DNA of 32,000 nt from Candidatus Heimdallarchaeota archaeon (lineage in GTDB: Archaea; Asgardarchaeota; Heimdallarchaeia; JABLTI01), in assembly GCA_030614005.1 (NCBI GenBank), contig JAUWKS010000037.1, positions 1 through 32,000 of the forward strand, written 5' to 3'. The stretch's first letter is position 1, and every line of letters begins with the position of its first letter. The position numbers and the translations under genes are program-made. Below are positions 3,969 through 32,000 of this stretch, piece by piece. A model generated the notes under the pieces. The model did not search any database and had not been told where the DNA came from. It worked only from the letters and a program-made list of their open reading frames with translations.

Positions 3969-6900
3969 ATGGAACACATCACAAAGAGTCTCGAGATACT
4001 CCAAAAAACACCGGGAGAACCACAGTTTGTTGATTTTCAAGTTCTTGCTGTTAGGCTGCGGGATGCAGAAAGAGGGTATCACTTAGCTCTACGTATACTT
4101 GAACCTGAAACTAGAAACCAAATATGCAAAGCAATTATTTATCCGATGGAATGGTACCCAGGACGGTATGACGATCCTTCATTTTCACATTATCACAGTG
4201 TTCTTAGATATTGTTATGCTGGACTCACCTCCGAAGGAAGACCTGCTGAACTGCTGCTACAAGTTATGAAAGCTGTTTGGAAACCTGAAAAACCAAAACC
4301 ATCTGAAAAATCTACTGGTACTCATCTAGGTCAATTAGTAATTCTCAAATTTATTATTTCACCTGATTACAATATAACAGGTGGTGAACTCGAGTTAGCT
4401 TTTAATTGCCCTGCTAAATATTTTTATGAATCATTCCTAGGGTTACAAAGAGCGATTCGTAATGCTCCTACGTCTATTGGATTTGTTAGAGGAAATGCTA
4501 TTCATAAAGGAATACAATATGCTTCAAATGAATGGGTGCAAAGTGCTGACCCTGTAGCTGCAATGAAATCGTACAATAGAGCAGTTATTGATGAGTGGAG
4601 AGATAATTTTGCTGTTTTACTTCGCAAAAATTATTTTAGAGGCCCAACAAAAGATTTGAAATTACCTGTTCAAGTAGATTCCATAGTAGTTGATCAAATA
4701 GCTGAAAAATTCACTGGTATAAAAGAAACGCAACTGTTGAACGAATGTCTATTATTTTCACCTGAAAGAGGTATTTCCGGGAGAGCAGATCAGATCATAC
4801 TAAAGGAAGATCAAGATGAACTTTGGGAGATAAAAACAGGGAGTAGATATTTCATTGAATCTGACTATGATCCCTTAACTGGAGTAACTCATCCTGGCGG
4901 GATACAAGCATTTGCCTATCATGACATCGTGAAAAAAGTGCTAGGACGAGCTCCAAAAGTTTTCATTGAATTTTTTGATGCTGATGCAGGAATGGAGGAG
5001 GGTAATCCAGAGATAATTCCATTGCAAGATCATGCTGTAATAAAGAGGAGAAAAATAGATCTTTCCAACACTCAAAGTGATGAATATCTTGACTTGCTTC
5101 TTCAAACAAGAAACATATCATTTGCAATTGAATCTGGTTTACTGTCTGGGTATGATCGCTATAAAATAAACAAATTCCTATCAAGAAGATTCATGCCTGC
5201 TTTAGGGACAGATTTTAACCTTCTTAGCAGCAATTGGAATCGTATTTGCAATTACTGTCCTTCAAATCAACAAGGTATTTGTTCTGATGGTCGAATTCGA
5301 TTAGATACAGACATCTGGTTACATTTCCCTCAAGATTTGTATGAATACTGGTCTTGGTATTTCAGACAATTAAGATTTGAATTAAATAATGTTAAAAGAC
5401 ATCTACATCGACTCGCAACAACACAAATTTCTGTCCTTGAAGAACAAGGAGTCACTATCTCAGATCTCGAGATGAAAAAATTTGACCCGTACAGATATAT
5501 TCTCACTTTATCTTCAAAAAAGAGGATTTTCACCCGAATTCGTGAAGGTGACAGTGTTTTTGTCACTCCTTCCACATTGAAACCGGGAGAAATTTTTAGT
5601 GTAGAGGGGAAAGTTGAATCTCTCACTACAGATGAAGTGGTCATTAAAACACGCTCTACTTTAAAGTCTCGAGGTAAACAGTCAAAAGAATTTAGGATAG
5701 ATCAAGTACAAAATGTAATTTTTTCCAAATGGCAAACTCGCTCTCTCACTGATTTCCTCTTTGAATCAATGAGGAGAACGAATATTCTAGGTAGAAAGTT
5801 ATCTAGTAAAGAATTGCCTAGAACAGTACAGCTTATTATTGGAACCACAAAACCGCGAAAAATTAAACCCGTTAGTAGAAAACGATTACTAAAGAATTTA
5901 GACAAATTTAAGGTTGAAGCGATCGAAAAAGCATTAGGTTTGGAACCAGGTGAATTTCTGTTAGTTCAAGGACCACCCGGAACTGGAAAAACAAGAATGA
6001 TCTCTCAACTTGCTCGAGAAATTTTCTCCGAAAAATATCTTCTTCATTCAAAAGATACTAATGAAACGGATTATACTCTTCCAAAACCAGTTCTCATTCT
6101 AGCAAATACTCACAGAGCTGCAGATGAAGTTATTATAAAATTGCGTTCATTTGAAGATTTGAAACCGTATATTGTCAGATTGGAATCTTATTCAAAAAAT
6201 CATCCTAAAGAAGTTCAAGAGTTTATTATTCCAAATAGAGTTGAATACTCAGAACACTTTAAAGAAAAAGCAGACCCTAATCTTTTGGTTTCTATTCTTA
6301 AGAAAGGCATAGCTATGTACAAACAAGCAGGAATCATTGTTGGTACTCTGGGAAGTGTTGGTAATAATCTCTTAAAGGGTTTAAATTTTAATTGGGTAAT
6401 TATTGATGAAGCTGGGCAAGCTACTGAGCCTGCTTCACTAGGTGCACTCCGCCATTTATGTCCACCTTCCGATTCAGAAGATGGTTATCCACGAATAGTT
6501 TTAGTTGGGGATCACAATCAATTACCTCCCGTAGTTTCGGAAGAAACAATTGAACACACTCCACCTGTTCCTAAAGTGCTTCTCAAATCCGGTTTAACGA
6601 AAACAGATACGCTCAAGACATCACTTTTTGAACGATTGTTCCGAATGTGGAAAGAGAAATCTAACAACGTTGTTATCTTAGCTGATCAATATCGAATGAA
6701 TGAGGCAATTTCAAGAATAATTAAAAATGCTTTTTATCCTAAAATAAACTACGTTCCTGCTAATGATTCTATTGGAAAGCATACTTTGAAGGATTTTTTG
6801 GGTGCTTTCACTCCTACACGAACGCTAGATCCAAAGAAATTATCAAACCAAATTTTCGATTATAAAATACCTATTGTTTTACTAAACTCGGAAAACGACC

Positions 6901-7448
6901 CAAATGGTCTGGAAGGAGTAGAGGATACTGAAATTCAAACCGAATCTCGTTTTAATATTCGAGAAGCAAAAATAATTGGCTCATTACTAGCTGAATTTCT
7001 AATGAATTATTCTGAAGAGGATCAAATTGTCATAGCAAAACAAATAGGAGTAATTTCTCCCTACCGTCATCAGAATAATTTGATTTATGGTGAATTGCGT
7101 ACGAAGAAATTCTCTGCTGCTGTTATTGAGCAGATAAGAGTTGATACCGTTGATAGATATCAGGGTGATGAGCGAGAAATTATCCTCTTGAGTTTAACAA
7201 ATAGTAACGAACTTAATGCTATCGGTCAGTTGCATCGCGAATGGCGACGAATGAATGTTTCAATCAGTAGAGCCAAAGCTAAGCTTGTAATCATAGGCAA
7301 TAAACAAACTTTCATTTCACCCAGTTCTGAAAGCAAAGATGCTGAAGCAAAAGAAAAATTCAAGAAAATGTTTGATACGATTGAGGTATTAAAGAACGAA
7401 AAATTAGCTTTAGAACTTCCTACAGCGAAACTATTCACTGATGAATGA
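3969..7448 (+). CDS. Dna2-like nuclease-helicase: Cas4/AddB-type Fe-S PD-(D/E)XK nuclease fused to a Upf1-like SF1 helicase
   Basis: Nuclease: IISPDYNITGGE..FNCPAK, RGNAIH, GRADQII, WEIKTG, QAFAY, CNYCPSNQQGIC. Helicase: QGPPGTGKT, ANTHRAAD, IDEAGQ, GDHNQLPP, QYRMN, ISPYRHQ, TVDRYQGDE, RRMNVSISRAK. Confidence 0.9.
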   Translation: MEHITKSLEILQKTPGEPQFVDFQVLAVRLRDAERGYHLALRILEPETRNQICKAIIYPMEWYPGRYDDPSFSHYHSVLRYCYAGLTSEGRPAELLLQVMKAVWKPEKPKPSEKSTGTHLGQLVILKFIISPDYNITGGELELAFNCPAKYFYESFLGLQRAIRNAPTSIGFVRGNAIHKGIQYASNEWVQSADPVAAMKSYNRAVIDEWRDNFAVLLRKNYFRGPTKDLKLPVQVDSIVVDQIAEKFTGIKETQLLNECLLFSPERGISGRADQIILKEDQDELWEIKTGSRYFIESDYDPLTGVTHPGGIQAFAYHDIVKKVLGRAPKVFIEFFDADAGMEEGNPEIIPLQDHAVIKRRKIDLSNTQSDEYLDLLLQTRNISFAIESGLLSGYDRYKINKFLSRRFMPALGTDFNLLSSNWNRICNYCPSNQQGICSDGRIRLDTDIWLHFPQDLYEYWSWYFRQLRFELNNVKRHLHRLATTQISVLEEQGVTISDLEMKKFDPYRYILTLSSKKRIFTRIREGDSVFVTPSTLKPGEIFSVEGKVESLTTDEVVIKTRSTLKSRGKQSKEFRIDQVQNVIFSKWQTRSLTDFLFESMRRTNILGRKLSSKELPRTVQLIIGTTKPRKIKPVSRKRLLKNLDKFKVEAIEKALGLEPGEFLLVQGPPGTGKTRMISQLAREIFSEKYLLHSKDTNETDYTLPKPVLILANTHRAADEVIIKLRSFEDLKPYIVRLESYSKNHPKEVQEFIIPNRVEYSEHFKEKADPNLLVSILKKGIAMYKQAGIIVGTLGSVGNNLLKGLNFNWVIIDEAGQATEPASLGALRHLCPPSDSEDGYPRIVLVGDHNQLPPVVSEETIEHTPPVPKVLLKSGLTKTDTLKTSLFERLFRMWKEKSNNVVILADQYRMNEAISRIIKNAFYPKINYVPANDSIGKHTLKDFLGAFTPTRTLDPKKLSNQIFDYKIPIVLLNSENDPNGLEGVEDTEIQTESRFNIREAKIIGSLLAEFLMNYSEEDQIVIAKQIGVISPYRHQNNLIYGELRTKKFSAAVIEQIRVDTVDRYQGDEREIILLSLTNSNELNAIGQLHREWRRMNVSISRAKAKLVIIGNKQTFISPSSESKDAEAKEKFKKMFDTIEVLKNEKLALELPTAKLFTDE

Positions 7449-8118: not shown

Positions 8119-10416
8119 GTGCCGAAAATGTCATTGAAAAAAGTAAGTAGTTCATTACTAAGTCAAATTGGTTTCTCAGAACTGGAGCAGCAAGTGTATT
8201 TGACTATTCTGGGAATTGGGAATGCATCCTTGGGTGAAATGTACCTTCAAACAGGAATATCTTTAGAAGATTTGCAAACCGTCGTTGATGAATTATCTGA
8301 TAGAGGTTATCTTAAAAAAATAACCGGCAAAATCAACAGATATATTGCTGTCGAACCATTTCTCAAAGGGTTCTTATTTGTTGAAAAGGAATTTCAAAAC
8401 GACATCATTGGTATTGAAAATTCTTTAATTAATTCTTTTGATTCTAGTTATGATAAATTATCTCTTAGTATGGATAGTTTCGTAGGATCAATAAGTCCTA
8501 TTTACGATAAAATAGTAGAAGAGCTACGGCTTTCAAATGAGAAGCTAAAGATGGAGTTAACAAATTCTATTTATCGTCATTCAGATAAAATATCCAATCT
8601 TGCAGAAGATTTTGATGTCATACTTTCTGAAGGATTCTCTAAAACTTATTTGTCTATTAGTAATGAGCTTTCAAATCTTAGTAATGAAATTAGCGTTATT
8701 CTTCGTGAAGAATCCACCAATGCTTCATCTCGTTTACAGAATTTTGAACAAATTACAAACGAGACACTTTCAAGTCTCATCCAACCATTAAATGATGCAA
8801 TAATTGAATATAAAGCATCTGCACCTGATAAACAAAAAATAATTTTGGATGAAAATAGACACGAAATAGCTACTCTACAAAAGAATATCAAATCAATCAC
8901 TAAATTGAGTTTGAAAGATATTACTACATCGATTAAGGACTTCGAGAAGGAATTTTTAGAGGTGCTCTCTGTAGCTTCAAATGGATATGCTACTGTCATA
9001 AAAGATTACAAAACTGTTACTCGTACATTAATAGATGAAAAGAAGAAAAAATTAGATGGTGCAGTAGTAATACTAGTTCAATATGTTGGTAAAAATATTG
9101 ATCAACTTTCAGTGGAAGCTCATAACCTGAAAGAAAATATTGATGAATTAACCAAAACTGGTTTATTAAAACGACCTCCTCCCCATTTGGTCCAAGAAGC
9201 AAAAGAACGTGCTGATAAAATTGATCGTCTATCCCAAGATATCAAAGGCGCTTATGATGAAACACTTAATACGTATCAGAAGGGCATCATAGAAGGTTTG
9301 AACGATTTAATAAAAGCAAATGACACCTTGTTAACAAAACAACTTACAGATGGAAATAACCGGATTAAAAATCTCAAAATAAAAATTGCTAATAGCTGGA
9401 CTGCCATTACAAAGAAATATGATCAAGATTTAACGGCAGCTGTTAAAGAAGTGCTTAAGGAGTCCAATCCAAAACTCACAAGTACCTCTAAAGAGGTGTT
9501 TAATAATACTCTCAAACACATTGAGGATCTAAAGAACAGTATTTCCGCAGTTTTAGCCCCATTAAAGGATGTTATCTTTAAGGATCTTGAAGATTGCATG
9601 GAAAACCTCTTTTTGAATTCAGCAAAGAGATTGCGATATCACAATGATTCGAATAATAAATCATTAGAAACTATTCGCCATCTAACCGATGATATGAAAT
9701 TTGTTTTCAAGAATCAAGTACAAGAAGAATTAAGTAAACCTAAACAAATTGCTTCTGATATGATAGGCGATTATACAAGTACTCTCGACAACTATCTAAC
9801 CACTCTTAATAGAGACCAAGGTGCAACTCTCGATACCATTACAACAGCAGCAGAAACTTTTCTCAGTGTTCTGAAGGATTCCTATGCGACTTCGAGCAAT
9901 GAAATTTCCAATAGATTGGCTGCAATTATTTACAAGGTAAACGAAACTAAAACATACCTCCAAGAAATCACCAATGCAGTAGATCAAATTCTTCCTATTC
10001 CAAAACCACATTCAATTATTGTCTATGGCAATCAAAATTCAATGAACACTATTTATGATATGCTACTTCGTACACGATCAACTTGTACCATTGTAGTTCC
10101 AACAATAGATCAATATCTTGTAGAACTTCTTACTAAACAAGTCTCAAAGAGAGTCAGAGTAAGAATATTAGCTGATGTTGACGCATTCAGAGATGAAGCG
10201 TTGGTTGCAGCCTTGAAAGGACAAGGGAACATAACTATTTGGAATTACAATATGAGAGACTTCTTCGCAGTTACCCGTGATGGTGCAGAAGTATTGCTTG
10301 CTCCTGTCACTCGAGACGGAGAGCTAACAAGTTTCGTAACAGAACAAGATGCTTTGGTAAGAGCAATTCAACAAATTATTAATGCTTCTTTCATGGCTCG
10401 TTCAAAAGAAGTCTAA
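8119..10416 (+). CDS. TrmB-family HTH + ~550-aa amphipathic helical/coiled-coil region + C-terminal PLD-like (non-HKD) domain
   Basis: N-terminus GFSELEQQVYLTIL...L.DRGYL......RYIAVEP is TrmB-HTH-like. The middle is heptad-rich helix. The C-terminus (VRVRILADVD...DFFAVTRDGAEVLLAP) resembles the TrmB effector/PLD fold without HxKxxxxD. Confidence 0.75.
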   Translation: MPKMSLKKVSSSLLSQIGFSELEQQVYLTILGIGNASLGEMYLQTGISLEDLQTVVDELSDRGYLKKITGKINRYIAVEPFLKGFLFVEKEFQNDIIGIENSLINSFDSSYDKLSLSMDSFVGSISPIYDKIVEELRLSNEKLKMELTNSIYRHSDKISNLAEDFDVILSEGFSKTYLSISNELSNLSNEISVILREESTNASSRLQNFEQITNETLSSLIQPLNDAIIEYKASAPDKQKIILDENRHEIATLQKNIKSITKLSLKDITTSIKDFEKEFLEVLSVASNGYATVIKDYKTVTRTLIDEKKKKLDGAVVILVQYVGKNIDQLSVEAHNLKENIDELTKTGLLKRPPPHLVQEAKERADKIDRLSQDIKGAYDETLNTYQKGIIEGLNDLIKANDTLLTKQLTDGNNRIKNLKIKIANSWTAITKKYDQDLTAAVKEVLKESNPKLTSTSKEVFNNTLKHIEDLKNSISAVLAPLKDVIFKDLEDCMENLFLNSAKRLRYHNDSNNKSLETIRHLTDDMKFVFKNQVQEELSKPKQIASDMIGDYTSTLDNYLTTLNRDQGATLDTITTAAETFLSVLKDSYATSSNEISNRLAAIIYKVNETKTYLQEITNAVDQILPIPKPHSIIVYGNQNSMNTIYDMLLRTRSTCTIVVPTIDQYLVELLTKQVSKRVRVRILADVDAFRDEALVAALKGQGNITIWNYNMRDFFAVTRDGAEVLLAPVTRDGELTSFVTEQDALVRAIQQIINASFMARSKEV

Positions 10417-11841: not shown

Positions 11842-13704
11842 TCACCTCTTAGTAAAAGCATCGTAGGGGCAAATTATTCTGCAAACACCGCATCCAATGC
11901 AAGTTGATTCATCAACATGAGCTTTCTTTTTCTCATAATCGAATGTGATTGATGGACAAGCAAAAGTTCGCACACAAGTTCTACATCCTATGCAGATTTC
12001 TTCATCTACGAAATACTTTTCGATTTTCTCTTTTGCTCTTTTTGCTACTCTAGCGTATTCTAAAGCACAGTCTCTTCTTGAGATGACAACAGCTAGTTCT
12101 CCACTGTCAATTGCTTTTCCTATAACTTCTATAGTATGGTCGAGGTCATAGGGATCAACAATCGCCAAATTTTTGATTCCAATTCCTTCGCAAACTTGTT
12201 CAATAGTTACAATACCTGCTGGTTCACCAAACGCCGTTTTACCTAATTCAGGCGTTGGTTGACCACCGGTCATTGCAGTTAGATGATTATCAACTATTAC
12301 TAAGACAAATTTAGCATTGTTTACTATAGCATTTACTAAAGCTGGAATGCCTGAGTGGAAGAATGTACTATCTCCTATAACTGGGATAATCAATTGATCG
12401 GTTGATTGAGCAAGACCATTTGCTATACCAATTGATGAACCCATTGATACCGTTGTGTCAACAGAGCTCAGAGGGGCCATAAATCCGAGAGTATAACATC
12501 CGATATCTCCAGGCATTATTGGTTTGAGTTGTCGTTTCTTTGCTGCTTTCTTAATTGCAATGAACGTTGCTCTATGTGGACATCCTGGGCAAAGCTCGGG
12601 TGGCCTGATTGGTAATTGCGCGTTAATTTCATCTTGTGATGGTAGGTCTTCCTCATATTCTGCAAGTTTAATGCCCATTACTTTTGCGAAAGCACGTTTC
12701 AAAATCAACGGATTTAGTTCATTTGAAATTGGAATAGCTCCTTCCTTTCTTCCATATATTTTAACTTTGATGCCATTTTCTGCTGCTAAAGCTTTCACCA
12801 GTAATTCAAAGTACGGTTCAACTTCTTCTGCAATGAGGCATTTAGGATTTTCTTTTAATAACTCAATTATTTTTGCTTCCGGAAGAGGATTGCTAAAACC
12901 AATCTTGTAAATAGTGGGATCAATATCCATTTCTCTTATGGCGTCAATTACGTAAGTGTAAGAAACACCAGAAGTGATAACTAACAAAGGATCTTTTCCT
13001 TTGGTAACAACGTTCCATTTTGATTTGCATGAGTAGTCCTTCAACTCATCCAATTTTTGTAATAAGAGTGGTTTTGCTTTTCGAGCACTACTGGGTAAAC
13101 AAACGAATTTTTCAGGATTCTTCACGAATTCACCCTTTATTTCTCTCTTTGCAGGGATTTCACCTATTTCAACTGGTCCCCGAGAATGACTTAAACGTGT
13201 TGTTGATCGTAAGATAATCATTGATTCGTTTTTTTCAGAGAACTCATAGGCATATTTTACCATATCTAAAGCTTCCTGTGGAGTTGAGGGTTCCATACAA
13301 AGTGCGTGTGCAGCAAGTGCATACATTCTTGTATCTTGTTCATTTTGACTTGAATGGAAACTTGGATCATCTGCAATACACATAACAAATCCGCCTTTCA
13401 TCCCACCGAATAATGCTGCTGTGAAGAATGGATCTGCTGCAACATTTAGTCCTACATGTTTTGCTACAGTAAAGGATCGTAAACCGCTCCACGCAGCACC
13501 TAATGCCACTTCAAAGGCAATTTTTTCGTTGATTGACCATTCAGCATGCATTCCGGTATCTTTTCCAAATAAAGCAATGGTTTCCATTACTTCTGTTGAA
13601 GGAGTACCCGGATACGCAGCTGCGACATCAACACCAGCTTCTAAGACACCTCTAGCTATGGCTTCATTGCCGCTTAAAAGCATCATAGTTTTTTTATCTG
13701 ACAA
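11842..13704 (-). CDS. iorA: Indolepyruvate:ferredoxin oxidoreductase alpha subunit
   Basis: LSGNEAIARG, YPGTPSTE, KHVGLNVAADP, RPPELCPGCPHR, GDIGCY, IGDSTFFHSG and a C-terminal 2x[4Fe-4S] domain (CIGCRTC..CP, CIGCGVC...CP). Start set at TTG 13704. Confidence 0.95.
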   Translation of the reverse strand: MSDKKTMMLLSGNEAIARGVLEAGVDVAAAYPGTPSTEVMETIALFGKDTGMHAEWSINEKIAFEVALGAAWSGLRSFTVAKHVGLNVAADPFFTAALFGGMKGGFVMCIADDPSFHSSQNEQDTRMYALAAHALCMEPSTPQEALDMVKYAYEFSEKNESMIILRSTTRLSHSRGPVEIGEIPAKREIKGEFVKNPEKFVCLPSSARKAKPLLLQKLDELKDYSCKSKWNVVTKGKDPLLVITSGVSYTYVIDAIREMDIDPTIYKIGFSNPLPEAKIIELLKENPKCLIAEEVEPYFELLVKALAAENGIKVKIYGRKEGAIPISNELNPLILKRAFAKVMGIKLAEYEEDLPSQDEINAQLPIRPPELCPGCPHRATFIAIKKAAKKRQLKPIMPGDIGCYTLGFMAPLSSVDTTVSMGSSIGIANGLAQSTDQLIIPVIGDSTFFHSGIPALVNAIVNNAKFVLVIVDNHLTAMTGGQPTPELGKTAFGEPAGIVTIEQVCEGIGIKNLAIVDPYDLDHTIEVIGKAIDSGELAVVISRRDCALEYARVAKRAKEKIEKYFVDEEICIGCRTCVRTFACPSITFDYEKKKAHVDESTCIGCGVCRIICPYDAFTKR

Positions 13705-13978
13705 TTTTGTTAACCTTCTGTTTCTTTTTCTATACAAAATAAAAGTCCAACACTATATCTTCTGTTTGTCTTTTCATCAAATTTAGTTGTTGTGACTTTT
13801 TTAGTATCTGTTTAATTCTAAGTAAAACTTCAGTTATACCAAAAATATAAGGTCCGAAGACCCTTTTTAACTTCTTTCTTCTCTCTACTTTTGATAAAGG
13901 TTTCCTAGAAATCAAAAGTTTTTTAATCACTTAATATAAGGACACATTATAAATTTACTTTAGAACGTGTGATTGACT

Positions 13979-15034: not shown

Positions 15035-15166
15035 AACACCCTTTTTCCCCTATTTCTGCCCAATGTATTCTCTAGGTACTATCACCATTGATATGAGAAA
15101 AATGTCTTGGTAGCACACGGGTTTTTAATATTTCAACGATATTTGTATCCATATAAGGTGAGGACA

Positions 15167-16306
15167 ATGGAATCTTTTATCAAAAATATCACTGAAAAAG
15201 AGCAAGTACCAAAGCTTTTTCCAACCGAAGAATCAAAGCATGACTCTCAAGATGTTGATCAAGATTTACGAAGGATTATCGAGGACATCCAGGCGAAAAT
15301 ATTGGTTATAGGTGTCGGTGGTGCGGGAAATAACGCAGTCACTCGATTAAATCAATCGGGTCTTGTTGGGGCAATTACTCTAACAGCAAATACAGATGCG
15401 CAACAATTGCTCTTCTCAAAGAGTCATAAGAAAATGCTCCTAGGCAGAGAGCTCTGCAGAGGGCTTGGTGCAGGTAATGATCCACAAATTGGCGCAGAAG
15501 CTGCAGATGAATCAAGTGAAACCTTGAAAGGCATTCTAACTCAAGTTGATATGGTCTTTATTGTTTGTGGACTTGGTGGGGGAACCGGAACTGGTGCTGC
15601 CCCTGTTATTGCCCGTTTAGCCAAAAATTTAGGTGTACTAACTGTATCAATATGCACTCTTCCATTTGATGTTGAAGGGAAGATGAAAGCTTTACATGCA
15701 AAAGAAGGTTTGAGACGTTTATATGAAAGTAGTGACACTACAATTGTAGTTCCAAATGAAAAATTAATAGAAATAGTCCCTGAACTTTCATTAAAAGAAG
15801 CTTTCTTGGTTGCTGATGAAATACTCATTCGTGCAGTCACAGGTTTAACAGAACTCATTAATCGTCCAGGAGATGTTAATGTTGATTTCGCAGATGTTCG
15901 TCGAGTTCTTGGTGAAGGCGGAGCAGCAATAATTGGCCTCGGGGAATCTAGCAGTGTAGATAATAGAGCTCAAGAAGCTGTTGAAGATGCTTTGAACAAT
16001 CCATTACTCGAAGTTGATATTCGCACAGCGAAAAGCGTTTTGCTAAATATTACTGGTGGTAAAGATCTCAATCTGAAGCAAACCGAAGAAGTAATTCGCG
16101 CGGTTACAGATCAGCTTAGTTCAGATATCATCGTTAAATTCGGTGTTTTGATTGATCCCGACCTTCAAGGAACAATTAGAGCAACAATTGTAGTTTCTGG
16201 AGTAAGAAGCCCCTATATTCTTTCAAATTTACAGGATTCGATTTCTTCAGATATGGATTATGATTTAGAAGACGATCTCGACTTAGGGCTCGAAACATTT
16301 GAATAG
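15167..16306 (+). CDS. ftsZ: Cell division GTPase FtsZ (FtsZ1-like)
   Basis: GVGGAGNN, GAGNDP, GLGGGTGTG, intact T7 loop NVDFADV, acidic DLGL tail. ATG 15167 follows AAGGTGAGGA. Confidence 0.97.
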   Translation: MESFIKNITEKEQVPKLFPTEESKHDSQDVDQDLRRIIEDIQAKILVIGVGGAGNNAVTRLNQSGLVGAITLTANTDAQQLLFSKSHKKMLLGRELCRGLGAGNDPQIGAEAADESSETLKGILTQVDMVFIVCGLGGGTGTGAAPVIARLAKNLGVLTVSICTLPFDVEGKMKALHAKEGLRRLYESSDTTIVVPNEKLIEIVPELSLKEAFLVADEILIRAVTGLTELINRPGDVNVDFADVRRVLGEGGAAIIGLGESSSVDNRAQEAVEDALNNPLLEVDIRTAKSVLLNITGGKDLNLKQTEEVIRAVTDQLSSDIIVKFGVLIDPDLQGTIRATIVVSGVRSPYILSNLQDSISSDMDYDLEDDLDLGLETFE

Positions 16307-18437: not shown

Positions 18438-18998
18438 ATGACTATCTGGACTTTACGTGCGACCATAGGTCAAGAAAAAGCAATTGCCAAACATATCCAC
18501 TCTAAAATAGTGAACAATAAAATAGATGTTTGGTCTCTCCTAATACCTGAAGCTTTAAGAGGTTATATTTTCATTGAATCAGATTCTATTCAAAGTATTG
18601 ATAGTGCTGTTCAAGGTATCCCTCATGTAAGAAATAAGGTTGTTGGTGAAGTAGAAATAATTGAGCTGGAAAGTTTCTTAGTTCCCAAGCCAACAATTGA
18701 AGGACTTCATATTAACGATCTCATTGAGATAATTAGTGGTCCATTCAAAGGTAGCCGTGCAAAGATAAACAGAATAGATGTAGGGCGAGAAGAAGTTACT
18801 GTTGAATTATTGGATTCGCAAATTCCGATTCCCATTAAATTACATTCTGATTTCTGCAAAGTAATTGAAAGTGCAGCTGGTGATGAAGCAGAAGAAGATC
18901 TTATGCCTGCTAAATCTGATGATGATTCTGATAGGAAAGGTGATGGAAAGAAAGGTGAAAAGGACGACGATGTTTTCACTGAACTCTTTAAATCTTAG
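18438..18998 (+). CDS. spt5: Transcription elongation factor Spt5 (NusG) with an acidic C-terminal extension
   Basis: NGN domain (TIGQEK, LRGYIFIE) and KOW domain (EIISGPFKGSRAKI), then about 40 aa of D/E/K-rich tail. Confidence 0.95.
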   Translation: MTIWTLRATIGQEKAIAKHIHSKIVNNKIDVWSLLIPEALRGYIFIESDSIQSIDSAVQGIPHVRNKVVGEVEIIELESFLVPKPTIEGLHINDLIEIISGPFKGSRAKINRIDVGREEVTVELLDSQIPIPIKLHSDFCKVIESAAGDEAEEDLMPAKSDDDSDRKGDGKKGEKDDDVFTELFKS

Positions 18999-19204: not shown

Positions 19205-21016
19205 TTGTCAACCAAAAGAGTTGGAAAAATATTAAAGATTTCTGGACCTGTCATTGAAGCTGACGGCATGCTCGGTAGTTCTATGTATGAAGTCTGTAAA
19301 GTAGGTGAGGAAGGACTTATTGGTGAAATTATCAAGATTAAAGGCGATGTCTGTACTATCCAAGTATATGAAGAAACTGATGGTATTCGCCCCAATGAAA
19401 AAGTCATTGGTACTGGTGCAGGTTTAAGTGCAGAATTGGCTCCTGGATTAATCGGTCAAATTTACGACGGTATTCAAAGACCCTTGCCATTAATTCTTGA
19501 AAAAACTCAAGATGATTTCATCAGAAGAGGAGTAATTGCAATTCCCTTAGAATATGACAAAAAATGGCCTTTTGTCCCAACCATTGAAAAAGGAGCAAAA
19601 GTCACCGCTGGTGATATCATTGGTACCGTTCAAGAAGGACCAGTTGTAAATCACAAAGTTATGATTCCCCCAAAAGTAAGTGGTACAATTACCAGTATTG
19701 TTAAAGCAGATGATTATACTGTTCTTGATCCTATAGTTACAGTGAAATCTAATGGCACTGAACTAGAAATCCCTATGCTCCAAAAATGGCCTGTAAGATT
19801 TGGTCGCCCAATTAAAGAGAGGCTAGAACCAACAATACCCCTTATTACTGGTCAAAGAGTTTTTGATACATTCTTTCCAATCGCTAAAGGCGGAACAAGT
19901 GCAATTCCAGGTGGTTTTGGAACTGGAAAAACAGTTTCTCAGCATCAATTAGCCAAGTGGTCTGACGCTGAAATTGTCGTTTACATTGGTTGTGGAGAAC
20001 GCGGAAACGAAATGACAAATGTGCTTGAGGACTTTCCGAAACTGATCGATCCAAATACAGGCGAACCTTTGATGAACAGAACTATTCTCATAGCCAATAC
20101 AAGTAATATGCCTGTTGCTGCTCGAGAAGCAAGTGTGTATACTGGGATGACTCTTGCAGAATACTATCGTGATATGGGTTATAATGTTGCTTTAATGGCT
20201 GATAGCACTTCTCGATGGGCAGAAGCGATGAGAGAAATTTCCGGAAGACTGGAAGAAATGCCTGGTGAGGCTGGGTATCCTGCATATTTAGCAAGCAAAA
20301 TTGCTCAGTTTTATGAACGAGCTGGACGTGTAAGTACTTTATCAACTGCTGAACGACAAGGTTCAATTACAATTATTGGTGCAGTTAGTCCTCCTGGTGG
20401 AGACTTTTCCGAGCCTGTAACACAAAATACTCTAAGAATCACAAAGGTCTTTTGGGCTCTAAGTAAAGATTTAGCTGCAAGAAGACACTTTCCTGCAATC
20501 GATTACTTGAACTCATATACTCTGTATACAAATGAGCTTGCTCCCTGGTTTGCAGAGAATGTTAACCCTAGGTTCCAGGCTTATCGTTCTGAAGCTATGG
20601 TTCTCTTACAAAAGGACAAAGAATTAGAAGATATTGTGCAACTTGTAGGCCCTGAAGCTTTGCCTGAATCTGAGAAAATAATTCTTGAATCAGCACGAAT
20701 GATAAAGGAAGACTTTCTCCAACAAAATGCTTTCAACGAAGTAGATAGTTTCTCTTCACTTGAAAAGCAATGGTTGATGTTGAAAATAATTATTGACTTT
20801 TATCATAAAATGGGTGAGCTGTACAACCTCGGTGTGAAGCTCCCTGAAATGATGAATTTGCCTATCATTGATAAGATTACTCGAATGAAGTATATCCCTA
20901 ATGATAATGTGGGTAAAGAGCTTGGTGCAATTCTCGCAGAAATTGAAGCTCTACAAGTCGATGCAATTACAAATCGCATTGGTGGCAGAATGATGACTGA
21001 TTTAACAGATAAATAG
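19205..21016 (+). CDS. atpA: A/V-type ATP synthase subunit A
   Basis: [14 protein letters not shown] Walker [34 protein letters not shown]; no intein. Confidence 0.97.
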
Positions 21017-22488
21017 TGGAGCGAATGAAAATGACTGAAACACCAAAAATTAATCCAGAAACACTTGCAAAGAGAATATTTAAAACTGCTATAGAAGTTA
21101 CCGGTCCCTTGTTATTTGTGGACTTGAAAGGTAAAGCAGGAGTATCCTATGGTGAAATTGCTAAAATAAAGCTTCCAGATGGAGAAATACGCTCTGGTCA
21201 AATTCTTGAAGTATCAAGAGATATTGCTGTTGTGCAACTTTTCGAAGGCACTTCTGGAATGGATGTCGAAAAAACAACCATACAATTTCTTGGAGAAACA
21301 ATGAAACTCCCTGTATCTAGTGATCTTCTTGGTAGAATTTTCGATGGAAGAGGCGAACCCCTTGATAAACAACCTCCAATTGTTGCTGTAGATGAGTGGC
21401 CTATTAACGGTTCCCCAATTAACCCATATGCAAGACAATATCCTCGAGAGTTTATACAAACAGGTATTTCATCTATAGATGGTTTGTTTACACTTATTCG
21501 AGGACAAAAATTACCCATCTTCTCTGCAAATGGTTTACCACATAATGAAGTTGCAGCACAAATTGCTAGACAAGCTGCAGTATTAGGTGCTCAAGCTGAA
21601 TTCGCTGTAGTCTTTGCTGCTATGGGAATTACTGCAGAAGAAGCACAATACTTTAGAAAAGAATTCGAAAAAAGCGGCGCTCTCGATAGAGTTGTTCTTT
21701 TCTTGAATTTAGCAGATGACCCTGCTATTGAAAGAATTCTTACTCCAAGATTAGCTCTCACTGCTGCAGAATATCTCGCATACGAATGTGATATGCACTT
21801 ATTAGTTATCCTTACAGATATGACAAACTATGCAGAAAGTTTGCGTGAAATTGGTGCAGCAAGAGAAGAAGTTCCTGGTAGACGAGGTTTCCCCGGCTAT
21901 CTCTATTCTGACTTAGCATCTATCTATGAACGTGCAGGAAGAATTAAAGGACGCAAAGGAACAATTACCCAGATGCCCATTCTTTCTATGCCGAATGATG
22001 ACATAACGCACCCAGTACCTGATTTATCTGGATATATCACAGAAGGCCAAATTATTTTGGATCGAGGGTTACACAGAAGAGGCATCTATCCTCCAATAAA
22101 TGTAGGACCTTCTCTAAGCAGGTTACAAAAAGAAGGTATTGGCAAAGGTCTAACGCGTAGAGATCATAAAGAATTAGCTGATCAATTATATTATGCGAAT
22201 GCCCGCGGTAACGATTTACGTAATCTCGTTGCTGTAGTTGGAGAAGAATCTCTTACAGAAGAGGATCATCGTTTCTTGAAATTTGCTGATGATTTTGAAC
22301 AAAAATTCCTAAAACAAGGGCGAGATGAAAATAGAAACATCTTTGAATCTCTGGATATTGGTTGGGAATTACTTAAAATCTTCCCCAATCCAAAAAGAGA
22401 GCTAAAGCGCATTTCAGAAGAAACAATTAATTTCTTCCATTTGGAAAGACGTGATCCAAAAATAAATTATAATTCAAGAGACGTCTAA
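21016..22488 (+). CDS. atpB: A/V-type ATP synthase subunit B
   Basis: [54 protein letters not shown] overlaps the atpA stop (TAGTG); ATGs at 21025/21031 are alternative starts. Confidence 0.97.
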
Positions 22489-23571: not shown

Positions 23572-24351
23572 TTACTTTTTTTCCTTTGATTCTGAAAGTT
23601 TTGCGGCATTACTTTTTCTTAGGTTATTAAGTGAATCGTCAACCAAATAGAAGTTGCTATCAACATTTATAATATAAACCATTTCACCAGGTAAGAACTC
23701 TTGTTGTTTGTGTACAGCTTTGGCTGGAACTTTCAGTGGCTCAATTTGACCGGGAATTTCTACTCTTATTAACCCGCCTTCAGAGTTGACTTTTATTGAA
23801 ACAATTGCTTCGCGTCCTATGAAATCTCGGTTGGAAGGTAACCGATATGTTACTGTTTTTGAAATCTTCTTCCAAATAACGTTAACAATTATTGAGAGAA
23901 TAATTGGTGAAAGTATGGTTAAAACTAATCTTAGATATGAATTCATACTTGGTTCTTGCCAAAAGAGTAACAACCCTAACCCACCAAATGAAATTGAGAA
24001 AACTGCAAGTGAAAGCATTAATGGAGTTGCGCCTCCTTTTTCTATTTGGAACGGACCCACATCATCCAATGCATCTAAACCGACTTCAAAATCTACATCA
24101 ATATCTTTGTCGACACTTACATCTTTGTCTACTGAAAAATCTTTGTCAATAGTTAGATCTTTATCAATCGAAATGTCTGCATCATGATCGATATCATGGC
24201 TAAGGCTCTGACCTGTGCTAATTCCAAAAGTGACTAACACAAGAATAATAACAATTGAACCGAAAATTAAAAATCCTATACAAAACCCTCGAAACCATTC
24301 TTCCCAAAGAAGCAAATCTGCTGCAATATTTAAATGAAGTAATCGTGCCAT
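23572..24351 (-). CDS. NfeD-like/YqiJ-like membrane protein with acidic repeat linker and C-terminal OB fold
   Basis: N-terminal TM, D/H-rich linker, two more TMs, then FIGREAIV...GLIRVEIPG OB-type segment; adjacent to the SPFH gene. Confidence 0.75.
   Translation of the reverse strand: MARLLHLNIAADLLLWEEWFRGFCIGFLIFGSIVIILVLVTFGISTGQSLSHDIDHDADISIDKDLTIDKDFSVDKDVSVDKDIDVDFEVGLDALDDVGPFQIEKGGATPLMLSLAVFSISFGGLGLLLFWQEPSMNSYLRLVLTILSPIILSIIVNVIWKKISKTVTYRLPSNRDFIGREAIVSIKVNSEGGLIRVEIPGQIEPLKVPAKAVHKQQEFLPGEMVYIINVDSNFYLVDDSLNNLRKSNAAKLSESKEKK
24097..24174. repeat. Degenerate 18-bp tandem repeat (about 4 copies) encoding x-[ST]-[IV]-DKD hexapeptides
   Basis: ATCTTT(G/A)TC core at 24103, 24121, 24139 and 24157; translates as ISIDKD LTIDKD FSVDKD VSVDKD. 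Confidence 0.85.
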
Positions 24352-24432
24352 AAAGTTTAGCATTTTTTTTAACCCTGCTTATATTTTTTCCTTTTGTTTG
24401 ATTCATATTTTACTATCTATAAAGAAGATCCT

Positions 24433-24449
24433 GGGAGAACCATTCTCCC
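24433..24449. terminator. Hairpin between the SPFH and NfeD-like genes
   Basis: GGGAGAA-CCA-TTCTCCC: 7-bp stem. Confidence 0.3.
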
Positions 24450-24476
24450 GTAACCATTCACTTAGGGAATACCTAA

Positions 24477-25712
24477 CTACTTGGTAGTGGTCGTTCTCCT
24501 ACCTTTTGGTAATTCTTTCTTTATAGATTTCTTTGGTATTATTTTCACATCTTCAGTGATATTCGCAGACATGATTTTAGAAAAGTCAAGACTTCTGCCA
24601 GTGATTTCTGGTAACACCGTTAGAAATGGTATTATGGATTCAGCAATACTTGAGAATGCCTGTTGTCCATCACCCATAACAAACATTTTATCGACATTCA
24701 GGTGTGAATAAATCTCTGGGAGCATTTCAACAATTTTTAGCTGGAAAAACTTAGGATCAGCTTGGGCCAAAGCTTTGACCTGCTCAAGAATACCATCAGC
24801 TTCAGCGATGAGCTTCTCCTTTACAGCTGCAGCTTCACCTTGAGCTTTAGCAATAAGCTGAGCTTTTTGTCCATCAGCTATTCTGATCATTTTTTCGTAT
24901 TCAGCATCAGCTTCGATGGTTACTTTCCTTCTAAGAGTATCAGCTGCGATTTCTGTTCTTTTCAATTCAAGCTTTTGAATTTCAATTTCTCTATTCTTAC
25001 TTACAGATTGAATTTCCAATTGAACATTTTGTTCTTGCTTGCCTGTCTTTCTTGAAACCTCAAGGTCTCTTAATTGAGTAACCTCTTCCATTGCTGCTCG
25101 GCGTAACCGTGCTATTTCTTCTTCATTTATTTGTTTTGATGCTTCCAAGTTTGTTTTCAGAACTCTATTCAATACTTCAACATCTCTAATTTCAACTGAA
25201 ATGACTACTATACCCATATCAGCTAATAAATCATGTAGCTCTTTAGATACAGCTGAAATAATCTCACCGCGTTCTCTGATGATAGCTTCTAAATGCATAT
25301 TCGCACAAGTGGTACGAATGATGCTTTCTGCGGCATTTTTTATTATTGTCTCTATGTAATCCGCATCTCTTTCATTCCAAGATACAGCAGTAAAGGCTAT
25401 TTCTGGTTTAATAACTTTCCAAAAAACGAAAGCGTTTACAGATACATCTTGAAACTCCCTTGATAACACTTTTTCTTTTGCTTCTAGAAATGTTTGTTGA
25501 GTGGTCGTAGGTATGACAATAATTTCATCAATTATTGGCATTAGAAGACATTTTCCACCTTTCCCTGCAGATTTAACTTTACCATTTCTGAATCTAATTA
25601 CATATTCATTTGTTTTGAACTTTCGATATCTGCTGATGAAAAAAATAACGACCAATAACCCTAATACACATATTCCAGCAACAATTAATCCAATTGTAGT
25701 TCCGATTGCCAT
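24477..25712 (-). CDS. SPFH/band-7 flotillin-like protein
   Basis: N-terminal TM, SPFH core (IIKNAAESIIRTTCANM...LADMGIVVISVEIRDV), AE-rich coiled coil (AEADG, AQGEAAA). Confidence 0.88.
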   Translation of the reverse strand: MAIGTTIGLIVAGICVLGLLVVIFFISRYRKFKTNEYVIRFRNGKVKSAGKGGKCLLMPIIDEIIVIPTTTQQTFLEAKEKVLSREFQDVSVNAFVFWKVIKPEIAFTAVSWNERDADYIETIIKNAAESIIRTTCANMHLEAIIRERGEIISAVSKELHDLLADMGIVVISVEIRDVEVLNRVLKTNLEASKQINEEEIARLRRAAMEEVTQLRDLEVSRKTGKQEQNVQLEIQSVSKNREIEIQKLELKRTEIAADTLRRKVTIEADAEYEKMIRIADGQKAQLIAKAQGEAAAVKEKLIAEADGILEQVKALAQADPKFFQLKIVEMLPEIYSHLNVDKMFVMGDGQQAFSSIAESIIPFLTVLPEITGRSLDFSKIMSANITEDVKIIPKKSIKKELPKGRRTTTTK

Positions 25713-26450: not shown

Positions 26451-26746
26451 ACTTAATCAACCATCCGTTTGATTTCAGCTTTATTATAATTTCTCTTTGT
26501 GCAAAAGAACTGAAATTTATTACTGAATATCAGTCAATTTTTGCGCGTTATCTACTAATTGTTCTACTAATTAAAGAATTTTTGTAGTGGCAAATCGAAA
26601 AACAGCCGTTATTTTTGCCTAGTAAAAAGATAACTTTTTTTATGGCACATTAAAAAGTAATATAAACTATATCCTCAAATTATGAGTAGGTATATTGTAC
26701 CGACTTTAAAAATAAATTAGATCTGATTTATTCGGAGTAAAATACA

Positions 26747-27547
26747 ATGGACATAAATGACCCTTACTCTCCAAAACTTGCTGGAATAATTGTTTCATCT
26801 TTTGCAGATAGAGGCCCCGATATCGTTTTTAATAATACTGAATTAGCTGAAGACGAAGCAATGATATTAGCTATAAAAGGTATGACAGTTATTGGTCTTG
26901 ATAGTCCATTAGATGTTATTGAAGATATAAATGATGATGAAGAGCGCAGGGCTACTATCCAACAATTTGGTCCATTTCCAATCAAAGGTCGAGATAACTT
27001 AAAAGCGTTAGCAATTTCATTTGTTGTGAAAGCTGAGGAATCAGCTGATCATAGAATTATGACCTTTGGTCGTTTTTGTGTAATCTTTTTGGTTTATCAT
27101 CAAGAGCATACAAGATTGATGTTAGATTCATATGGTTTAATTGAACCTTATTTTACCATTATATCTCGAGATCTCGTTATGGATAGCGATTTAAACCCCA
27201 CAAATCTCAGTAGCGTTTACCGTAGAATGAATATGCTTTTTCAAGGTGTTTTGCCTCGAGTATTTACAGTAACAGACAAAGGTGTAATCAAAGAATTAAT
27301 TGGCAAGGAAATTAGCCATAGAGATGTTTTTCTGATTGCTGATAAAAAGAAGAATTCCCTATATACAATGCTTGTTGATCCTGAAATGAATGTTTGGAGG
27401 AAACGGAAAATCTATCAAACAGCATCAAACCTCAACTCTCATCTGTACCGTCAAAAATTAACCATTAACACCGTAACAGAGCTTGAAGAAATTTCAATCT
27501 TACTAAAACGTTACAATCTCTCTGTTGAAGGCATTTCTCAAGGATAA
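26747..27547 (+). CDS. Hypothetical protein: uDENN/longin-like N-terminal domain + degenerate gelsolin-like C-terminal domain
   Basis: LAGIIVSSFADRGPDIVF resembles the uDENN start pattern. RDVFLIADKKKNSLY...VWRKRKIYQTASNL resembles single-domain gelsolin-like folds. Confidence 0.55.
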   Translation: MDINDPYSPKLAGIIVSSFADRGPDIVFNNTELAEDEAMILAIKGMTVIGLDSPLDVIEDINDDEERRATIQQFGPFPIKGRDNLKALAISFVVKAEESADHRIMTFGRFCVIFLVYHQEHTRLMLDSYGLIEPYFTIISRDLVMDSDLNPTNLSSVYRRMNMLFQGVLPRVFTVTDKGVIKELIGKEISHRDVFLIADKKKNSLYTMLVDPEMNVWRKRKIYQTASNLNSHLYRQKLTINTVTELEEISILLKRYNLSVEGISQG

Positions 27548-31709: not shown

Positions 31710-31900
31710 CTTAGCTTAATTATGGTCTATCTTGGTTAACGCACTCTTAAAGAGTTGGTGTTAACTTTTGATTCTCTGCGAGTCCGCCCAACTCCAGAAT
31801 CATTCTGAAGGAACTTTCGTTTGACGTTTGGCTGTATGTCGCTAAAAAACTTCTCTCGAAAGACTCGAATATCTTTCAAGAGTCGTTGCCTGACCACAAG
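31710..31900 (-). ncRNA. Candidate TnpB omega-RNA (scaffold plus flank-derived guide)
   Basis: Stems at 31862-31884 (GACTC/GAGTC), 31795-31807 (CAGAAT/ATTCTG) and 31735-31765. The position matches known omega-RNAs; boundaries are guesses. Confidence 0.35.
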
Positions 31901-32000
31901 GCGTTTCTGTGATAGTGCTAGTAAGGCGAGGAAGCGCTGCATTTGTGTTCCTGAACTGCTTGTATCTCGATCTATTACTAACCCACAATCACAACTAATA
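31730..32000 (-). mobile_element. Right end of an IS200/IS605- or IS607-type element
   Basis: tnpB 3' end, visibly higher GC than the flank, and an imperfect subterminal hairpin at 31735-31765. The exact end cannot be fixed. Confidence 0.55.
31736..31999 (-). CDS. tnpB: TnpB-like RNA-guided nuclease, C-terminal fragment (runs off the window)
   Basis: The frame stays open from 31999: ISCDCGLVIDRDTSSSGTQMQRFL..., i.e. Zn-ribbon C-x-CG plus the DRD RuvC-III motif, then a basic tail to TAA at 31738-31736. Confidence 0.7.
   Translation of the reverse strand: MSCDCGLVIDRDTSSSGTQMQRFLALLALSQKRLVVRQRLLKDIRVFREKFFSDIQPNVKRKFLQNDSGVGRTRRESKVNTNSLRVR

Follow-up and report, generated by a model that had tools for sequence, protein, structure and literature searches.

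The window, the whole 32,000-nucleotide stretch of DNA that was analysed, carries a gene in which a GP-motif longin domain is fused to a gelsolin-fold domain closest to the ProGel of Thorarchaeota. The fusion is real. Relatives of the gene adjoin genes for Arf- or Rag-type switches, and the encoded protein is therefore a candidate archaeal regulator of such switches. We think, with moderate confidence, that it serves Arf-longin GTPases as a GAP-type or platform regulator. Both domains are already known singly, as are the GP-motif longins of Asgard archaea. No published description of a longin-gelsolin fusion or of the operons described here was found, though a listing in a figure or supplementary table is possible (e.g., Liu et al. 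2021, PMC11914678). According to PMC11914678, which GAPs and GEFs natively serve the Asgard Arf proteins is unknown, and regulators have been called hard to match to their GTPases from genome layout (PMC10933270).

The Gene and Its Two Domains

The open reading frame is preceded by GGAG at 26734-26737 (Table 1). An archaeal pilin gene in divergent orientation lies on one side of it and a convergent DUF389 gene on the other; it has no operon partner and keeps these flanks in 12 of the 12 genomes of the source family. It is a real gene because it has 27 close homologues (34-92% identity, mostly annotated as hypothetical proteins of Heimdallarchaeota) and 68 matches at E<=1e-3 in a search among 50%-cluster representatives. 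A Pfam scan of the protein and 28 homologues gave nothing meaningful, a DDE_Tnp_1_3 match at E 0.1 being noise. The full-length profile of the close homologues had zero matches among PDB sequences, and an Atlas feature search returned only sub-0.9 leads (NPR2, 19% of one cluster), with none for the C-terminal half. A scan for bacterial promoters and terminators stayed at chance level.

The AF2 model of the protein (50 homologues, pLDDT 83.6) splits into two domains. In the structure search, longin matches span residues 6-168 and gelsolin matches span residues 169-257/264. The fusion is regarded as real because each half has separate structure matches and because a sequence profile of the C-terminal half, which is independent of the model, finds ProGel. 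An earlier note on this DNA had proposed a fusion of a uDENN/longin-like domain with a gelsolin-like domain. The two-domain claim was borne out by structure search of both halves (longin, aa 6-168; gelsolin, aa 169-262). Because both fold assignments hold, neither half is left lacking a fold match, the outcome that the note had named as counting against its proposal. The motifs it quoted are all present: GIIVSSFADRGPDIVF (aa 13-28), FGPFP (aa 74-78) and D101-x-R103...R109-FCVIFLV in the N-terminal half, and RVFTVTDKGVIKEL (aa 171-184), DVFLIAD (aa 193-199), V216-x-R218-K219, A226 and L229 in the C-terminal half. Their residues were right, and two of the quoted spacers were each one residue too short.

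Table 1. Positions of the longin-gelsolin gene, of its domains and motifs, and of the duplicated GTPase genes. Conservation was counted over 58 family members, non-redundant at <70% identity.
Feature	Position	Strand	Basis or remarks
Longin-gelsolin gene, whole	26747..27547	+	266 aa, ATG start
GP-motif longin fused to ProGel-like gelsolin domain	26747..27547	+	AF2 model, structure search, homologues
Longin domain, FLCN/SMCR8/C9orf72/Lst4/NPRL2 class	aa 6-168, 26762..27250	+	Structure search, hhalign
GP motif F19-x-D21-x-G23-P24 of GAP-type longins	26801..26818	+	G23 98%, P24 97%, D21 88% (n=58)
Acidic insertion after helix 1, lineage-variable	aa 52-72, 26900..26962	+	Alignments; pLDDT lower at aa 51-60
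G75-P76-x-P78, family signature, strand 3	26969..26980	+	G75 100%, P76 91%, P78 98% (n=58)
D101-x-R103-I-x-x-x-G108-R109, β4-β5 loop	27047..27073	+	D101 97%, R103 91%, G108 91%, R109 83% (n=58)
Gelsolin-fold domain, closest to Thorarchaeota ProGel	aa 169-262, 27251..27532	+	Profile, separate model, structure search
Long basic helix of gelsolin domain	aa 216-232, 27392..27442	+	Model, alignment to ProGel
Stand-alone Arf-longin GTPase duplicate, intact (DLGGQ)	L159:6277-7227 = G000:C35:59279-60229	- at L159	Found in 11 genomes
Switch-degenerate Arf-longin GTPase duplicate (DLKDH)	L171:1447-2370 = G000:C4:90447-91370	- at L171	Found in 11 of 12 family genomes

Several other genes of the window were noted. 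A gene at 3969-7448 (+) fuses a PD-(D/E)XK nuclease to an SF1 (AAA_11/AAA_12) helicase in a Dna2-like layout, and one at 8119-10416 (+) encodes 765 residues with a TrmB winged helix, a long apolipoprotein-like helical region and, by eye, a PLD-like C-terminus. Also by eye, we recognise FtsZ (15107-16306, +), Spt5/NusG (18438-18998, +), the A and B subunit genes of an A/V-type ATPase with the remaining operon not nearby (19205-22488, +), and a contig-end fragment resembling the C-terminal zinc-ribbon part of IS200/IS605 TnpB (31736-31999, -). At 23572-25712 (-), an SPFH/band-7 gene precedes one for a membrane protein that has an acidic stretch of D-x-D repeats (an NfeD/YqiJ-like partner, by eye).

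The Longin Domain

The N-terminal half belongs with the GP-motif GAP-type longins. Its structure matches, given as VIA Z, are the Loki roadblock-longin (8yqg, 12.7), C9orf72-SMCR8 (7o2w, 11.4), Lst4 (4zy8, 11.3), the folliculin complex (6nzd, 10.5) and GATOR1 (8fw5, 8.8), and Foldseek concurs. Superpositions of the longin fold on these matches (Z 8.8-12.7) have an rmsd of 2.8-3.5 Å over 126-139 residues. An hhalign comparison of the family longin with 28 Heimdall FLCN-type longins gave Prob 93 and E 3e-7; it also aligns the GP motif, which precedes strand 2, with the GP of these Asgard longins. The motif occurs in FLCN, SMCR8, C9orf72, NPRL2 and some Asgard longins, and longins of the DENND, TRAPP and adaptin kinds lack it (PMC12290439). 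Conserved sites of the family lie almost entirely in this half (D21, G23, P24, N29, T47, G75, P76, P78, D101, R103, G108 and R109; n=58), and in the protein as a whole conservation peaks at the GP motif and in the arginine-bearing loop (n=58).

In the AF2 model, D101-R109 belongs to the loop from strand 4 to strand 5, where GAP longins have their arginine finger. The hhalign register pairs D101 with the D, and R109 with the second R, of Asgard FLCN-type longins. In this register, which comes from sequence alignment rather than atomic superposition, the variable M105/T106 occupy the place of the canonical A-R-G finger, and R103 stands two positions earlier in a loop with a 5-residue insert. R103 is a candidate displaced arginine finger. 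Because of the M105/T106 at the finger position, the five-residue insert and a near-invariant R103 of its own, the family longin is on sequence comparison a sister class of FLCN-type longins, not a member.

The Asgard FLCN/SMCR8-type GP longins described earlier (PMC12290439; 10.1101/2020.10.19.343400), of which the source genome has two or three, are homologous to the family longin. The two differ in their signatures, which are F-D-x-x-x-G-P and A-R-G-G in the Asgard FLCN type and F-x-D-x-G-P, G-P-x-P-x-P and D-x-R-I-x-x-x-G-R in the longin-gelsolin family, and PF11704 gave no score against the family. Elsewhere in the source genome, two FLCN-type longin genes and two Arf-type GTPase genes (G000:C74:24565-39330) share a contig with a divergent actin-like gene (12729-13892).

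FLCN-FNIP2 (6nzd, 6ulg), C9orf72-SMCR8 (7o2w, 6lt0), GATOR1 NPRL2-NPRL3 (8fw5) and yeast Lst4-Lst7 (4zy8) share with the family the longin fold (Z 8.8-11.4), the GP motif, a conserved arginine in the β4-β5 loop and an association with Arf- or Rag-type GTPases. These eukaryotic longin GAPs carry a DENN/NPRL C-terminal module, whereas the family has the gelsolin domain in its place and ends at residue 266. Its finger loop is also 5 residues longer, with the arginine at D+2 and not D+4, and unlike the eukaryotic complexes its operon has no dedicated second longin subunit besides the GTPase-fused longins.

The Gelsolin Domain and the Question of Actin

A gelsolin-like C-terminus had been predicted from sequence, and ProGel proved to be its best match by both profile and structure. 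The C-half profile has ProGel (7c2f) as its top match among PDB sequences (E 1.2e-6, full length). A separate AF2 model of aa 166-262 reached pLDDT 90.7 and superposes on ProGel with Z 10.9 and rmsd 2.5 Å over 86 aligned residues (Foldseek TM 0.70/0.76). Gelsolin, adseverin and 2DGels match more weakly (Z 8.4-9.4), as do Sec23/24 (Z 5.8-8.1) and cofilins (Z about 6). Calcium sites occur in 2DGel and gelsolin and are absent from ProGel, whose lack of the type I calcium-site residues the family may share. Unlike ProGel and 1DGelX (PMC7444086), to which it is homologous, the domain stands C-terminal to a longin, and its hydrophobic helix positions are basic in the window clade; longin-gelsolin is not among the three published Asgard gelsolin architectures (PMC7444086). 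W-x-G (DWG) is the signature of Asgard gelsolins (PMC7444086, PMC9433394). The earlier note had remarked that W-x-G is missing here, and this is correct: ProGel IYLWRG aligns with LYTMLVD, and neither W nor G is conserved there among the 58 non-redundant members. In sequence terms, W217-R218 takes the place of the helix-start acidic pair of 2DGel, E245 is an acidic position (D/E in 38/58), and the glycine of W-x-G is lost. A second gelsolin-like domain without W-x-G (C-half profile E 4e-5) forms the N-terminus of a 254-aa frame at G000:C110:62814-63575 (-), which continues with lysine-rich stretches and a short winged-helix-like segment.

It is conceivable, though unlikely, that the gelsolin domain still binds actin by weak side-binding or bundling of the ProGel kind; with a GTPase bound to the longin half, one chain would then couple the switch to the cytoskeleton. 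ProGel, the top match in sequence and structure, was crystallised on actin, and the C-half profile also finds the 1DGelX of the source genome (E 8e-5). V216-W217-R218-K219 correspond to L-F-K-K of ProGel, and the copies in the Rag operon of Hodarchaeales have a more ProGel-like helix (M-F-[LF]-A-[GS]-R-A-A). In the window clade both halves are equally conserved (71-82% among orthologues) and more so than most neighbouring genes (48-67% for the pilin, DUF389 and HdrB-like genes), which suggests that the C-terminal half has kept a binding partner. Eight of 10 congeners have canonical actin (about E 1e-133); in the source assembly, which is 90% complete, it was not found (best PF00022 match E 6e-28), probably through an assembly gap. 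The link from small GTPases to actin that the earlier note had drawn therefore stands on its GTPase side, through the operons and the gene fusion described below, and on its actin side does not extend beyond homology to ProGel. The actin side is the weaker because no actin or gelsolin gene adjoins the family gene in any locus examined, because W-x-G is lost, and because L53/M54/G55 of ProGel are replaced by R220-K221-I222. Against actin binding there is also the lack of any C-half residue invariant across the family, and the source genome already has one 2DGel and one 1DGelX.

Operons With Arf-Longin and Rag GTPases

The source genome (G000) has paralogues of the window gene on contigs C49, C87, C2 and C119. 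The C49 paralogue, 44% identical to the window protein over its full length, comes third in a run of same-strand genes. The first gene of the run encodes an Arf-family GTPase (Arf E 1e-42) that ends in a longin/roadblock domain and has an invariant DLGGH, and the second a pseudo-GTPase-longin without DxxG. The same family has this three-gene core of Arf-longin GTPase, pseudo-GTPase-longin and longin-gelsolin protein at 7 loci, and Heimdallarchaeaceae, among them H. aukensis and H. endolithica, have it at about 25. The core was retained although its GTPases diverged to 38% and 29% identity. A Rab-like gene comes fourth in the source genus; it was considered as a core operon partner and rejected, being missing from the Heimdallarchaeaceae loci. 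The operon GTPase resembles Arf1 more than Sar1. A predicted complex of the window protein, the operon GTPase, the pseudo-GTPase and GTP scored 0.51, against 0.41 for a control in which the pseudo-GTPase was replaced, a difference that counts neither for nor against binding.

Rag-type GTPases adjoin other members. In a Hodarchaeales clade the run consists of a Rag GTPase, a degenerate GTPase, the longin-gelsolin gene and a Rag GTPase, and in a third clade the longin-gelsolin gene adjoins a Rag-type gene. The association can also be found within one chain: P0077 (L005:6001-7794, 597 aa) has four domains, namely a GP-longin, a gelsolin-like domain, a Rag-type GTPase (Gtr1_RagA E 5e-34) and a roadblock-like C-terminus. 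GTPase-regulator operons are rare in MK-D1 (PMC10933270). The operonic Rag-like GTPase-roadblock pair of MK-D1, for which a heterodimer was predicted, is likewise a tandem of GTPase-roadblock/longin genes (PMC10933270), whereas here an Arf-type GTPase and a pseudo-GTPase are joined by a candidate regulator gene.

Family Spread and the Duplicate in the Window

The family profile matches 79 of 81 other Heimdallarchaeia genomes and a few genomes outside the class; the profile was built with sequences of the lineages counted, and weak matches in other classes may be to the longin half only. About three in ten clades have a GTPase gene as neighbour, against a background of 7.3% of genes in the source genome, and about seven in ten are stand-alone. 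Some neighbourhoods and domain partners are of other kinds. At L079 and L080 (G041 and G042, of one family) the gene is flanked on the same strand by genes for a CheR-like methyltransferase and a stand-alone longin. The family longin is joined to V4R in P0073, to a second N-terminal longin-like domain and a coiled coil in P0074 and P0084, to a helical-repeat-like tail in P0046 and, by eye, to winged-helix-like tails in P0059 and L003:283-1035.

The window gene is a family-specific, stand-alone duplicate that has probably departed from the ancestral operon; all 12 genomes of one family have it. Its clade (support 100) joins both operon groups in one clade (support 99). The trees were made by a quick method and long branches meet in their deep parts; the branching order of the window, own-family operon and Heimdallarchaeaceae copies was not separated by a clade test. 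Arf-longin GTPases were duplicated in the same lineage. A second, stand-alone copy (G000:C35:59285-60202) with an intact DLGGQ is 44% identical to the operon copy and was found in 11 genomes; such a second intact copy occurs only in the family with the window duplicate and not in Heimdallarchaeaceae. A degenerate copy on contig C4 was found in 11 of 12 family genomes and, with the query used, in 0 of 70 others. It is plausible that the stand-alone regulator and GTPase duplicates form a dispersed second module, and the likeliest client of the window protein is the C35 duplicate, possibly with the degenerate C4 copy. The lineage restriction that the three duplicates have in common is weak evidence in itself, as any lineage-specific genes would show such co-occurrence.

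The lack of a GTPase neighbour at the window copy and the stand-alone state of most clades speak against a GTPase regulator. They would suit a sensor or scaffold longin without a GTPase client, the duplicate having taken another partner or ligand, as would the fusions of the same longin to V4R and other domains and the NPRL2-like longins fused to two-component domains that have been described (10.1101/2020.10.19.343400). We consider this very unlikely, as the window copy keeps all motifs of the operon copies as well as full-length similarity to one of them, and matching GTPase duplicates are found in its lineage.

Proposed Mechanism

From the folds, motifs, gene neighbourhoods and phylogeny we infer binding to a client GTPase and GAP activity. 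The protein would regulate GTPase-longin switches in the manner of the longin GAP subunits FLCN, SMCR8 and NPRL2. Its longin half would form a platform by pairing with a second longin, either one from a paralogue or the longin at the C-terminus of the GTPase or pseudo-GTPase, and would present its GP motif and D-x-R loop to the G domain, most likely speeding GTP hydrolysis. The gelsolin-fold domain may be a non-catalytic, calcium-independent module for docking a partner, drifted from the actin-binding type. This regulator reading is favoured because of the GAP-class longin fold, the conserved GP motif and arginine loop, the operons and the P0077 fusion, and because of the matching duplicates and the orthologue conservation above that of neighbouring genes. 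GAP activity of Asgard GP-longins is itself a proposal (PMC12290439). The residues M105/T106 at the canonical finger position, in place of an arginine, speak against a GAP; that R103 acts in GTP hydrolysis as the displaced finger is a tentative suggestion from the alignment, and one we doubt somewhat.

The finger out of register speaks for an exchange factor (GEF) of the DENN or TRAPP kind, as does the finding that longin dimers are mostly GEFs (PMC10933270). Longins of TRAPP, adaptin, MON1-CCZ1 and DENND1A do match the N-terminal half, more weakly than those of the GAP class (Z 6.4-8.7; 6.4-7.7 for DENND1A, MON1-CCZ1 and TRAPP). In DENND1A (6ekk) only the longin lobe matches, over model range 5-168, and by structure search and by the end of the chain the cDENN and dDENN lobes are absent from the 266-aa protein. 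The uDENN/longin assignment of the earlier note therefore holds for the longin (Z up to 12.7) and fails for a DENN GEF module (DENND1A Z 6.4 vs 10.5-12.7). With the GP motif near-invariant here and reported missing from DENND, TRAPP and adaptin longins, a GEF is very improbable indeed.

The gelsolin-like domain of Sec23/Sec24 is likewise a gelsolin fold in a GTPase setting, with no actin binding shown; the family, unlike it, has no trunk, zinc-finger, barrel or helical domain. Sar1 has His in place of Gln at the DLGGH position. We take the arginine finger of Sec23 to sit in the last helix of its gelsolin domain, and a possible W-R-K likeness of the domain to Sec23 is not counted as support. 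That the gelsolin domain gives such a finger to a Sar1-like GTPase, and is the module missing from Asgard Sec23-like proteins (PMC11914678), is extremely unlikely in spite of the DLGGH of the operon GTPase and the fold match (2nup Z 8.1), because positions 245-250 of the last helix vary with no conserved arginine (n=58), ProGel is the better match, the operon GTPase is nearer Arf1, and the motif is DLGGQ in the GTPase proposed as client of the window copy.

The regulator of Arf-longin GTPases thus remains the reading that we prefer. Its fullest form, a single-chain, Heimdallarchaeia-wide regulator that would shut off an Arf- or Rag-type GTPase pair by a displaced finger, touch actin through its ProGel-like domain and be duplicated with its GTPase, is decidedly improbable.

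Significance

For the class nearest to eukaryotes, the family supplies named candidate pairs of GTPase and regulator; G23, P24, D101, R103 and R109 are single residues to mutate. The window gene is a natural duplication experiment, in which a second regulator is accompanied by a second GTPase with Gln for His. The family shows that outside eukaryotes, too, a GTPase module has taken up a gelsolin domain, in parallel to Sec23. It also bears on an early coupling of GTPase signalling with actin: if the regulator also touches actin, it would be a pre-eukaryotic link from small-GTPase signalling to the actin cytoskeleton.
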